IMG/VR virus record: IMGVR_UViG_2690316241_000020
Origin: a virus
Taxonomy: Duplodnaviria; Heunggongvirae; Uroviricota; Caudoviricetes
Length of the DNA stretch: 19,417 nt
Reading direction: 5' to 3' (one strand)
The first letter of the stretch is position 1. Every line of letters starts with the position of its first letter. The position numbers and the translations under genes are program-made. This document shows, one piece after another, positions 7,390-10,333 of this stretch. The notes below the pieces were generated by a model. That model worked only from the letters and a program-made list of their open reading frames with translations, ran no database searches and was not told the DNA's origin.

Positions 7390-8352
7390 ATGAGCAGCAA
7401 GCTTCATGGTCTTGTCTGGGAAGGGTGCGCCTTCACCGGCATGATCTTATCCAGGGTGGCGGTTATGGCCCGTCTTGCAGACTACAGCAATGACGAGGGC
7501 GTGTCATGGCCTGCCATTGAAACTATCCGGCGTCAGATCGGTGCAAGAAGTGAATCCACAGTGAAATCGGCTATTGCAGAACTGGCGAAAGAGGGCTGGC
7601 TGACGAAGGAAGAGCGTAAGGTCGGTGGGCGTAATGTAAGCAATATCTATCGGCTTAATGTGGAAAAACTCGAAGCAGCTGCGGCGGCGGCGCGTGAGTC
7701 ATATAAACCGAAAAGAAAAATTAGCCCGGCAAAAAATGACCCGTTAACAGTTGACCCGTCAAATATTGACCCCTCAACGGTTGACCCGTCAAATTTTGAT
7801 GGATCAACTGTTGATAAAAAACTGCCGATTAGGGGGGCGATGATTGACCCCGATCCGTCAGTATTAAAACCTGATCCGTCAGATAAAAGATCTTCTTGTC
7901 CGGACGCTTCGCAACCGGACCCGCAGACGGCTGAACAGGATTTTTTAACCCGACACCCTGACGCGGTTGTGTTCAGTGCGAAAAAACGCCAGTGGGGAAG
8001 TCAGGAAGATTTGGTGTGCGCACAGTGGATCTGGGGACGAATCGTGAGTCTTTACGAGCAGGCGGCCAGCGATGATGGCGAGATCACTAGACCGAAAGAA
8101 CCCAACTGGACAGCATGGGCCAATGACGTTCGCACAATGCGGATGCTGGATGGCAGAACTCACAGACAAATTTGTGAAATGTTTGGGCGTCTCCAGCGGG
8201 ATTCGTTCTGGGTAAAAAACATCATGAGTCCGGCAAAACTCCGGGAAAAATGGGATGAACTGGTTATCCGCCTGGGGCGTTCGCCCGCGCAGCGTTGCGT
8301 GAATCACATTTCTGAACCGGACACTGAAATACCGCCGGGATTCAGGGGGTGA
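7390..8352 (+). CDS. Replication initiator (lambda O-like / Rac YdaU-like) with N-terminal winged-helix DNA-binding region
   Basis: ATG at 7390 preceded by GGGGG (the track's GTG at 7375 is less likely). Position upstream of the DnaC-like gene. Contains an iteron array inside the coding sequence, as lambda ori does inside O. Confidence 0.7.
   Translation: MSSKLHGLVWEGCAFTGMILSRVAVMARLADYSNDEGVSWPAIETIRRQIGARSESTVKSAIAELAKEGWLTKEERKVGGRNVSNIYRLNVEKLEAAAAAARESYKPKRKISPAKNDPLTVDPSNIDPSTVDPSNFDGSTVDKKLPIRGAMIDPDPSVLKPDPSDKRSSCPDASQPDPQTAEQDFLTRHPDAVVFSAKKRQWGSQEDLVCAQWIWGRIVSLYEQAASDDGEITRPKEPNWTAWANDVRTMRMLDGRTHRQICEMFGRLQRDSFWVKNIMSPAKLREKWDELVIRLGRSPAQRCVNHISEPDTEIPPGFRG
7737..7811. repeat. 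Iteron array (four to five 15-bp direct repeats, core TGACCC(G/C)T(C/T)AA) inside the initiator gene; candidate origin
   Basis: TGACCCGTTAACAGT / TGACCCGTCAAATAT / TGACCCCTCAACGGT / TGACCCGTCAAATTT at exact 15-bp phasing from 7737, then a degenerate fifth unit and A-rich tract. Related TGACCCCGATCCGTCAG and TGATCCGTCAG follow at 7844-7880. Confidence 0.6.
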
Positions 8353-8358
8353 CGTGTC

Positions 8359-9099
8359 ATGAAAAACATTGCGGCAGTTGGGGTTCTTGAACGTATTCGC
8401 AGACTTGCACCACAGGGGGCGGTTCCACCGTACCGGACGGTGGAGGAGTGGCGGGAATGGCAACTTGCTGAAGGACGAAAACGCAGCGAGGAGATTAACC
8501 GCCTGAATCATCAGGTGCGGGTTGAAAAAATCCTGAACCGTGCGGGCATCCAGCCGCTTCACAGGAAGTGCTCATTCGGGAACTACCGGGTGCAGAACGA
8601 CGGTCAGCGCCATGCTCTGAGCCAGGCGAAATCCATTGCCGATGAATTGATGACCGGATGTACAAACTTCGTGTTCAGCGGTAAACCTGGTACCGGTAAA
8701 AATCACCTGGCAGCAGCGATTGGCAATCGGCTGATGGCGAAGGGGAGAAGCGTGATTATCGTCACCGTGTCCGATGTCATGAGCGTGTTGCATGACGGCT
8801 ACGACAACGGCCAGTCCGGGGAAAAATTTTTACAGGAGCTTTGTGGAGTTGACCTTCTGGTCCTTGATGAAATTGGCATGCAGCGGGATACGCGCAACGA
8901 GCAGGTCACGCTGAACCAGATAGTCGACCGCAGAACGGCTTCGATGCGTAGTGTCGGAATGCTGACGAACCTGAATCACGCAGCGATGAGCACACTCCTC
9001 GGAGATCGGGTGATGGACCGTATGACCATGAATGGTGGTCGTTGGGTGAATTTTAACTGGGAGAGCTGGCGGTCAAACGTTGGACGTCAGGGTATGTGA
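8359..9099 (+). CDS. DnaC-like helicase loader (IstB-like AAA+ ATPase)
   Basis: 246-aa ORF. Walker A GKPGTGKNHLAAAIG and Walker B DLLVLDEIG. Immediately downstream of the initiator gene. Confidence 0.85.
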   Translation: MKNIAAVGVLERIRRLAPQGAVPPYRTVEEWREWQLAEGRKRSEEINRLNHQVRVEKILNRAGIQPLHRKCSFGNYRVQNDGQRHALSQAKSIADELMTGCTNFVFSGKPGTGKNHLAAAIGNRLMAKGRSVIIVTVSDVMSVLHDGYDNGQSGEKFLQELCGVDLLVLDEIGMQRDTRNEQVTLNQIVDRRTASMRSVGMLTNLNHAAMSTLLGDRVMDRMTMNGGRWVNFNWESWRSNVGRQGM

Positions 9100-9124
9100 G
9101 AATTTTTGACGAGGTAAATTTTCG

Positions 9125-9895
9125 ATGGAAACTGTATTGCATGCACTGAAAGCGATGGGAAAAGCCAATTCTGTTGAACTGGCGGCGCGGCTTGATATCA
9201 GCCGTGAAGAAGTTCTTAACGAACTGTGGGAACTCAAAAAAAATGGCGTTGTTGATAAAACGGGTCACACCTGGTTTCTGGCTGTCGAAGGTGAAGCCGG
9301 GGTAGCCGAAGGGCAGGCACTACAACCTGAAGCGCCGGATGTGGTAACCGAAGAGGTCGCTCCAAAAGTTACCGCAGACATGATGGTTGAGTTTATCGGT
9401 CAGGATGGTGCTAAAACGTGTGAGGAACTGGCGGGTAAGTTCGGTGTCAGTACTCGCAAGGTTGCTTCCACGCTGGCGGTGGTAACCGCAACGGGGCGGC
9501 TGGCACGCGTTAATCAGAACGGTAGATTTCGTTACTGCATGCCGGGCGATAATTTACCAGCAGAGCCGAAAGCCGCGCTGGTAACGGAAAATGATGGTAA
9601 GGCCTTTCCTCAGCCAGCAGGTGCTGCGTTACCAGTCCGGGAAGCCGCAACACAGGAAGAAATAAAAACTGAAAGTGTGGCGGTCACAGTGCAGTCACAG
9701 CCGTTGTTCACCAGAAAACATCCGGATGGTCTGATTTTACCATCGCTGCATGTGGCTAACCGCGAGCTGCGCCGGGCAAAAGGTCAGGTTCAGAAGTGGG
9801 AGCGTGTCTGCGCCGCGCTGCGGGAGCTGAATAAACACCGGGATATTTTCAGTTCGATTGCTGATATTCCGGTTCATTCACCGACAACAAAGTGA
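9125..9895 (+). CDS. Hypothetical phage protein (256 aa), possible N-terminal winged-helix
   Basis: ATG at 9125 with GAGGTAA Shine-Dalgarno. No recognised catalytic motif. Confidence 0.6.
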
Positions 9896-9910
9896 TCTCC
9901 GGAGGTGCTT

Positions 9911-10333
9911 ATGACAAGAGCATTTACACCAGAAGAGCGGGAAAAAATTAAGGGGCTGATCGTGGAATTCGTACGCCTTAACGGACGAGGCACGATTCGG
10001 CAGTTATCGGATGAAATTGGTGTCAGTCATGCGTCTGTCGGTCGTTTATGCATGGAGCTGGCCGCCAGTGGTGATGTTTACAATTCCGGTTACGGAGTAT
10101 TCCCGTCTGAGCAGGCGCGCAAGGACTGGCAAAACGCCCGCAAAAAACTCTCAAGGGCAAAGCTGAAGAAACCATCTGTGGTTGATCCGGACCTTATCTG
10201 GCTATTACCAGACGGCGAAATACGCCGCTACGACAGGCGCCTAAACATAATCTGTCGCGAGTGCCGGAAGAGTGAAGCTATGCAGCGTGTACTGGCTTTC
10301 TATCAGGGTAATTTTCAGGAGACGGTACTGTGA
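9911..10333 (+). CDS. Hypothetical phage protein (140 aa)
   Basis: ATG at 9911 preceded by GGAGGTG; the track start at 9905 is a GTG two codons upstream. C-terminal CxxC (CRECRK). Confidence 0.6.
   Translation: MTRAFTPEEREKIKGLIVEFVRLNGRGTIRQLSDEIGVSHASVGRLCMELAASGDVYNSGYGVFPSEQARKDWQNARKKLSRAKLKKPSVVDPDLIWLLPDGEIRRYDRRLNIICRECRKSEAMQRVLAFYQGNFQETVL

Follow-up and report, generated by a model that had tools for sequence, protein, structure and literature searches.

A candidate replication origin built on 15-bp iterons inside the O-like initiator gene of a lambdoid Escherichia coli prophage

The replication origin of phage lambda lies within the gene for its own initiator, O, between the parts encoding the DNA-binding N-terminal and loader-binding C-terminal portions of the protein. 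In the lambda record, four inverted-repeat iterons (ATCCCTCAAAACGAGGGA, with a dyad of 19 bp) occupy nt 349–435 of the O gene at start-to-start distances of 20, 24 and 23 bp. An AT-rich tract lies on their distal side, and the gene for the helicase loader, P, follows O directly. Iteron number varies among relatives, with four in lambda and six in the Shiga toxin (Stx) phages 933W and P27 (PMC7466680). Plasmid iterons, typically 17–22 bp long and some two helical turns apart, are located outside the rep gene, and the proteins that bind them are of the Rep_3/WH1–WH2 kind (PMC4980987). Here, a locus with the lambda layout and a different set of repeats is described in a 19,417-nt stretch of Caudoviricetes DNA (IMG/VR record IMGVR_UViG_2690316241_000020), the whole of which is called the window below. 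It carries an O-like initiator gene, and the region from about 7690 to 7930 is most probably the replication origin of a lambdoid E. coli prophage, situated in that portion of the prophage's initiator gene which encodes the linker. The best reading of the sequence is a lambda-type origin, with iterons and an unwinding region, in which the iterons would be of another family and more closely spaced and Dam sites are conserved. The features concerned are as follows.

7390–8352, plus strand: O-like replication initiator gene, 963 nt encoding 320 aa, with its ATG at 7390 (RefSeq, PHROG 391, Pfam HTH_36)
7396–7701, plus strand: region encoding the N-terminal winged helix-turn-helix domain, presumed to bind the iterons (AlphaFold2, Pfam, Foldseek)
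7690–7930, no strand assigned: zone of synonymous constraint, taken to mark how far the putative cis-acting origin reaches (top-codon fraction 0.84–0.96)
7721–7735, no strand assigned: degenerate leading unit TTAGCCCGGCAA, in phase with the array (core with three mismatches)
7736–7810, no strand assigned: iteron array of five 15-bp units (repeat finding and core scan; same array at the same place in homologues; codon bias)
7811–7851, no strand assigned: spacer with runs of six A and six G and a half-copy of the iteron, ATTGACCCC, at 7843–7851 (sequence reading, repeat search)
7852–7895, no strand assigned: AT-rich segment, putative DNA-unwinding element, with two GATCCGTCAG motifs and AGATCT at 7888–7893 (GC content, conservation, GATC density)
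7933–8289, plus strand: region encoding the C-terminal domain, presumed to contact the helicase loader (lambda O homology, AlphaFold2)

The initial annotation of the window had described four tandem 15-bp units in exact phase with a degenerate fifth, a repetitive peptide encoded by them, and an A-rich tract with further motifs downstream. Direct reading of the sequence bore this out over 7737–7880. Units 1–4 start at 7737, 7752, 7767 and 7782, the degenerate fifth unit (TGATGGATCAACTGT) starts at 7797, and the repeats translate as DPLTVDPSNIDPSTVDPSNFDGSTVD; in a repeat search the start-to-start distances were 15, 15 and 15 bp. The core TTGAC-CC-GTCAA recurs at 7736, 7751, 7766, 7781 and 7796, again in exact 15-bp steps. 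Two properties go beyond that description. The units are inverted repeats (TTGAC/GTCAA) with a dyad of 10–12 bp, and the constrained region, about 7690–7930, is wider than the stretch described. Over 7725–7814, Tandem Repeats Finder returned a period of 15 (5.0 copies, 71% matches) and a higher-scoring period of 30 (2.5–3 copies, 80–84% matches); alternate units resemble each other more.

A scan of the window for the 12-bp core TTGACCCGTCAA with up to two mismatches gave matches in the array and a single one outside it, at 6068. With up to three mismatches, 20 matches were found in the whole window against 17.8 expected, which is chance level, so that the signal of the array resides in clustering and phasing and not in the word itself. 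No further repeat cluster or iteron-like site was found elsewhere in the window by tandem-repeat and core scans. The dyad units also make the entire array an imperfect palindrome, with 33-nt arms at 7746–7778 and 7780–7812 that are 79% complementary and separated by 1 nt; cruciform extrusion of 7746–7812 could be possible.

Homologous initiators, whose lack of repeats would by the initial annotation have spoken against an origin, carry them in nearly all cases. A protein search gave 915 initiator relatives, and 80 loci, one genome per species, were compared; 71 genes were full length. When the best period was scored over the first 700 nt of each gene, it was 15 (or the multiples 30 and 45) in about 69 of the 71, with the array beginning at nt ~290–350. 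These arrays of three to nine units follow immediately on the winged-helix domain, without exception in one and the same frame, in Edwardsiella, Erwinia, Morganella, Providencia, Yersinia, Rahnella, Kluyvera and other Enterobacterales. Alleles of 320, 315, 310 and 305 aa differ in steps of 5 aa, with the gaps inside the repeat; iteron number thus varies here as it does among lambda and Stx-phage origins.

Two iteron classes follow two classes of N-terminal domain. Class A, to which the present gene belongs (N-domain MSSKLHGLVWEGCA), has the unit [AG]TTGACCCnTCAA, and class B (N-domain MS[TV]KL..YVWD), found in SfII, SfIV, phiNP and Klebsiella phages, has the unit TCTGACnCnTCAAAAT. The array is co-inherited with the N-domain and its unit sequence differs by N-domain class, which bears indirectly on the putative binding of the units by this domain. 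No phage record exceeds 72% identity to the class A N-domain, and this domain and its iteron variant were found in prophages only. Homologues that match residues 6–183/189 only and have other C-termini still possess the array, and megablast matches in phages do not begin until nt 478 or 511 of the gene, a short way beyond it. From these observations, the N-domain, the array and the downstream element form one inherited module to which the C-domain is exchangeably joined, the classic lambdoid arrangement. Two loci lacking the array, L076 and L079 (E. coli CP178308.1 and CP178306.1), were set aside as deletion fusions and are no counter-examples. At locus positions 3001–4368, both have a 455-aa open reading frame (ORF) that joins the first ~78 aa of a class B initiator to terminase-large-subunit-like sequence, the product of a prophage deletion in which the origin and all else as far as the packaging genes were lost.

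The origin-like character claimed for the repeats in the initial annotation gained support from synonymous sites and codon choice, which reveal selection on the DNA. In protein-guided codon alignments, the share of genes using the commonest codon at amino-acid-conserved columns (the top-codon fraction) was 0.54 in the N-domain, 0.92 over aa 116–170 (window ~7690–7930) and 0.58 in the C-domain. The constrained zone differed from the N-domain and the C-domain with Mann–Whitney p = 6e-14 and 8e-12, respectively. The 61 class B genes alone gave the same pattern, and at the AT-rich segment the fraction was 0.92–0.93. Codon choice within the repeats was assessed on arrays defined by periodicity alone; these and the codon alignments superseded a first position-weight table, which was biased by the regular expression used to pick units. 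Array serines were encoded by TCA (230), TCT (160) or other codons (24) and never by AGY, compared with 36% AGY elsewhere in the same genes (TCA excess, Fisher p = 1e-30). Array lysines were encoded by AAA in 156 cases and AAG in none, compared with 816 and 379 elsewhere. Moreover, the two serines of each unit use differing, position-specific codons, TCT at one and TCA at the other, while the central codon of the unit is free in its amino acid (P, A, T, G or R) and the flanking bases, third positions included, are fixed. Codon choice, the synonymous profile and the constraint on the non-repetitive segment downstream together point to selection at ~7690–7930 on the DNA and not on the peptide. 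Scans of the window for other causes of constraint found no overlapping ORF and no promoter- or terminator-like site in the zone.

The fifth unit is followed by GATAAAAAAC, then by the half-copy of the spacer and by the GATCCGTCAG motifs at 7852–7861 and 7873–7882, which are 21 bp apart within the AT-rich stretch. In the closest class A relatives the spacer is a perfect inverted repeat, GGGGTCAA-N3-TTGACCCC. The GC content is 0.325 over the 40 bp at 7860–7899; the AT-rich stretch is short and broken up by the GATCCGTCAG motifs. Four GATC sites lie at 7802–7889 (90 bp), one of them in unit 5, and no other 100 bp of the window is as rich in them. The non-repetitive downstream segment, GACCCGTCAGAATCTGGnGGGGATCCGTCAGTAAAATCAAAACAAGATCCATCAGATAAAAAACC, is conserved in both iteron classes and in all genera compared, and has two invariant GATC sites, whose separation is 24 bp in class B and 21 bp in class A. 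GATC sites also cluster in the unwinding regions of P1 oriR and E. coli oriC. The GATC-bearing motifs retain a TGA-N4-TCA core and may be weaker initiator sites.

DnaA-box-like sites were not enriched in the window (43 against 38 expected) and showed no conservation. A perfect consensus box (TTTTCCACA; 7659–7667, minus strand) is located 70 bp upstream of the array and is probably incidental, since boxes are not enriched and the synonymous sites there are unconstrained. A box with one mismatch (TTATCAACA; 7809–7817, minus strand) abuts the last array unit.

The initial annotation had placed the array within an initiator gene, and this assignment was secured by a match to PHROG 391, 'replication initiation O-like' (2.3e-115), together with a C-domain homologous to that of lambda O (BLASTP, 39% identity over 119 aa, E = 5e-26). 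A tblastn search with the initiator matched the O genes of lambda and Stx phages. At the N-terminus, Pfam HTH_36 covers aa 30–76. AlphaFold2 predicted a winged-helix domain of helices and strands at residues 8–109, with a predicted local distance difference test (pLDDT) score of 72–87, and a helical C-domain at 186–300 (pLDDT 82–96). Residues 114–180 between the two folded domains were disordered (pLDDT < 50). Given this domain layout, the repeats and the AT-rich segment encode only disordered linker; the array itself corresponds to nt 347–421 of the gene. Foldseek with the N-domain returned generic winged-helix proteins only (MarR, PadR, DnaD-N; E ~4e-3 or weaker), and the initiator had no sequence match in the PDB.

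The reading frame is open as far as a GTG at 7375, 15 nt 5' of the ATG, and a mechanical ORF call of 325 aa is probably five residues too long, because all homologues and RefSeq start at the ATG (MSSKL...). At the other end, the last ~21 residues of the initiator (...SEPDTEIPPGFRG; 8305–8352; aa 305–325 in the 325-aa numbering) resemble the C-terminal end of host DnaT. The match is to model positions 159–179 of 179 in NCBIfam NF002770, at E = 0.004, which falls well short of the family cut-off. The tail probably explains the label 'primosomal protein I' in phage records, and it might be a short contact motif for a host replication protein.

The likeness to the lambda origin within O, as first proposed, extends to the position of the iterons, which begin at nt 347 of the gene here and at nt 349 in lambda. 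In both cases they are inverted repeats placed between an N-terminal and a C-terminal part, which here presumably bind DNA and the loader, with AT-rich DNA on the distal side, and in both the C-domains are homologous and the loader gene comes directly after the initiator. There are also differences. The N-domain is of the HTH_36 family and gives no match to the N-terminus of lambda O in BLASTP, the iteron sequence TTGACCCGTCAA is unrelated to that of lambda, and the dyad is 10–12 bp as opposed to 19 bp. The period of 15 bp, compared with 20–24 bp, agrees with the difference noted in the initial annotation. In addition, the AT-rich part has a conserved GATC pair, and the loader is a homologue of DnaC instead of P. 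In its N-domain, iteron sequence and period the locus therefore falls outside the strict lambda O/ori-lambda sequence family.

Closer relatives are the initiators of SfII, SfIV, phiNP, the Klebsiella Kp48xx type and mEp460, annotated as 'replication protein O' or 'primosomal protein I'. They belong to PHROG 391, have N-domains 64–72% identical to the present one, and are homologous genes with class B 15-bp arrays (for example, Shigella locus L007). SfII differs in having no DnaC-like gene adjoining the initiator; after the class B initiator in NC_021857.1 (28142–33423) come a 'transcriptional activator' and a gene that bears the name dam, with its product annotated as PAPS reductase. In view of the GATC pair conserved in the putative origin, it would be of interest if this replication module had a methylase gene. 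Neither an origin nor repeats are mentioned in the paper on the SfIV genome. Gene 15 of phi80 was considered because a homologue is named 'Replication protein 15', and was dropped as no phi80 record was among the phage N-domain matches.

Theta-plasmid iteron origins and P1 oriR share with this locus tandem direct repeats, a cognate initiator and an adjoining AT-rich region, in which unwinding is only putative here. They differ from it in that here an array with a 15-bp period lies within the gene, the initiator has no Rep_3 Pfam match, and DnaA boxes are not above chance. The comparison with Rac-like prophages suggested in the initial annotation held in one respect, as the same initiator gene occurs in a Rac-like prophage beside potC in E. 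coli O103:H2 12009. It failed for the Rac prophage of K-12 MG1655 (1418500–1425000), which has racR/ydaS/ydaT-type immunity genes, an initiator and the DnaC-like ydaV in the same order, whereas the initiator there, YdaU, belongs to DUF1376 and has another N-terminal domain. Rac oriJ was consequently rejected as a direct comparator. The same gene order with YdaU in place of the present initiator suggests that the N-terminal/origin module has been swapped between Rac-like prophages. In the O103:H2 12009 relative, racR and ydaS-like immunity genes precede the same initiator, a sign of module shuffling just upstream.

As predicted from this anatomy, the N-terminal winged-helix domain would bind the five 15-bp-phased dyad iterons (7736–7810) and the downstream TGA-N4-TCA motifs. 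The resulting nucleoprotein complex would destabilize the adjacent AT-rich, GATC-bearing segment at 7852–7895, and the lambda-O-like C-domain would recruit the DnaC-like loader and through it host DnaB. The repeat-encoded peptide would serve as a disordered tether, its sequence being largely a by-product of the DNA requirement. The GATC sites may add a role for Dam methylation or SeqA.

A 15-bp period corresponds to ~1.4 helical turns, so adjacent sites lie on nearly opposite faces of the helix, in contrast to the roughly two-turn spacing of lambda. This phasing and the closer resemblance of alternate units led us to consider an architecture unlike the lambda O-some, in which the initiator, instead of wrapping the DNA, covers it in a filament that is two-faced or helical, the universally conserved GATC pair on either side of the AT-rich stretch places origin opening under Dam/SeqA control as at oriC, and ~60–80 codons are dictated by the DNA. 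This fuller picture is offered tentatively, with more doubt than confidence.

Several points weigh against reading the region as an origin. The searchable literature yielded no experimental binding, unwinding or origin activity for this initiator family. The putative unwinding tract is short, and its AT content is only moderate, as the GC value given above shows. With 15 bp from centre to centre there is little room for a winged-helix dimer on every unit, and neighbouring sites are ~154 degrees apart on the helix; for both reasons the complex cannot be a simple copy of the lambda O-some. The difference between class A and class B units, which was taken to bear on recognition by the N-domain, is modest, both having TGAC-N3-TCAA. 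Finally, the homologues are phylogenetically related and repeats spread by duplication, so the uniformity of codons could partly reflect shared ancestry. Against this last caveat stands the free synonymous divergence of the flanking domains of the same genes.

The repeats might instead matter only as protein, as a low-complexity (D-P-S-x-V)n linker driven by slippage, the DNA period being passive and without a cis role. The encoded linker is indeed disordered and rich in Pro, Ser and Asp, its copy number changes by whole 5-aa units, and recombination homogenizes tandem repeats. Such a history would not, however, account for a central codon whose amino acid is free while the bases around it are fixed down to their third positions, or for a serine codon that depends on its place in the unit. 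The synonymous constraint also continues over 80 bp of non-repetitive sequence downstream, and it spans 61–71 distinct genes whose folded domains have diverged synonymously. We regard the protein-only account as highly improbable. An element of the initiator mRNA, in which structure formed by the palindromic units tunes translation or stability, appears the least probable of the readings. The array region, a long imperfect palindrome, does fold better than shuffled sequences as single-stranded DNA (z = -3.66). This fold, however, follows trivially from dyad-symmetric units, and a range of three to nine units in homologues would wreck any specific long-range pairing. Moreover, class B units are much less palindromic and equally constrained, and an Rfam scan gave no family and one match at chance level (E = 0.13). 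A purely peptide repeat or RNA element is thus very unlikely.

A cis-acting DNA element that is not an origin is harder to set aside, since constraint at the DNA level shows a DNA function without saying which. The array could act in autoregulation or handcuffing of the initiator, as a roadblock or pause for early-right transcription or as a site for a host factor, with the origin elsewhere; plasmid iterons also act in autoregulation and handcuffing (PMC4980987). On the other hand, the window offers no second repeat cluster to serve as that origin, and an array beside a conserved AT-rich element, in an O-like gene and at the position used by lambda, is the layout of an origin. Control roles would in any case add to an origin role and not replace it. 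The non-origin account is considered unlikely, and the probability that the origin reading leaves over lies mostly with an initiator cis element that has a control role, instead of or besides the origin role.

The setting of the gene accords with a phage replication module. The neighbouring features are the following.

5964–7367, no strand assigned: immunity and early-right context (Pfam matches, ORFs)
5964–6737, minus strand: CI-like S24 repressor (Pfam, ORF)
6730–6945, plus strand: Cro, P22-type (Pfam, ORF)
6942–7367, plus strand: YdaT-family protein in the cII position (Pfam YdaT_toxin, 2.8e-10)
8359–9099, plus strand: DnaC-like helicase loader gene, directly downstream of the initiator (NCBIfam NF009043, 8.7e-151; DnaC equivalog, 1.8e-92; PHROG 50; Pfam IstB_IS21)

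The gene order around the initiator is typical of a lambdoid early-right operon, and rightward early transcription would pass through the putative origin. Over 1300 complete E. coli genomes have the initiator gene at 99.9% identity. Matches in a plasmid search were for the most part prophages within megaplasmids, or chromosomes labelled wrongly. One record, NZ_CP148542.1, was submitted as an E. coli plasmid, complete and circular, of 15,977 bp; it consists solely of a prophage immunity, replication, Q and lysis segment, 89–97% identical to the window (5717–10318 and other segments). It could be a natural lambda-dv-like replicon running on the predicted origin, or a mis-circularized assembly.

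An intragenic origin in an O-like gene is what phage biologists would expect, and nothing is overturned by it. The 15-bp repeat family itself seems undescribed: the searchable literature, which leaves most older subscription work outside its coverage, gave only work on lambda and Stx phages and the paper on SfIV, and no description of an origin family with 15-bp iterons. It offers a second, sequence-unrelated solution to the lambda layout, made of 15-bp iterons, an HTH_36 domain and a DnaC loader. The analysis also indicates that a simple synonymous-site profile can find cis-acting origins hidden in genes.

For the prophages concerned, the result is a precise candidate origin of ~240 bp for the replication module in those >1300 complete E. 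coli genomes, including enterohaemorrhagic and Shiga toxin-producing E. coli (EHEC/STEC) lineages. Temperate phages of Shigella, Klebsiella, Citrobacter and Yersinia have the module as well. Once induced, such prophages replicate, and this drives gene dosage and the spread of phage. If the reading is true, the locus would be a clean case in which ~60–80 codons of a protein are set by DNA function and the peptide they encode is tolerated as a disordered tether.

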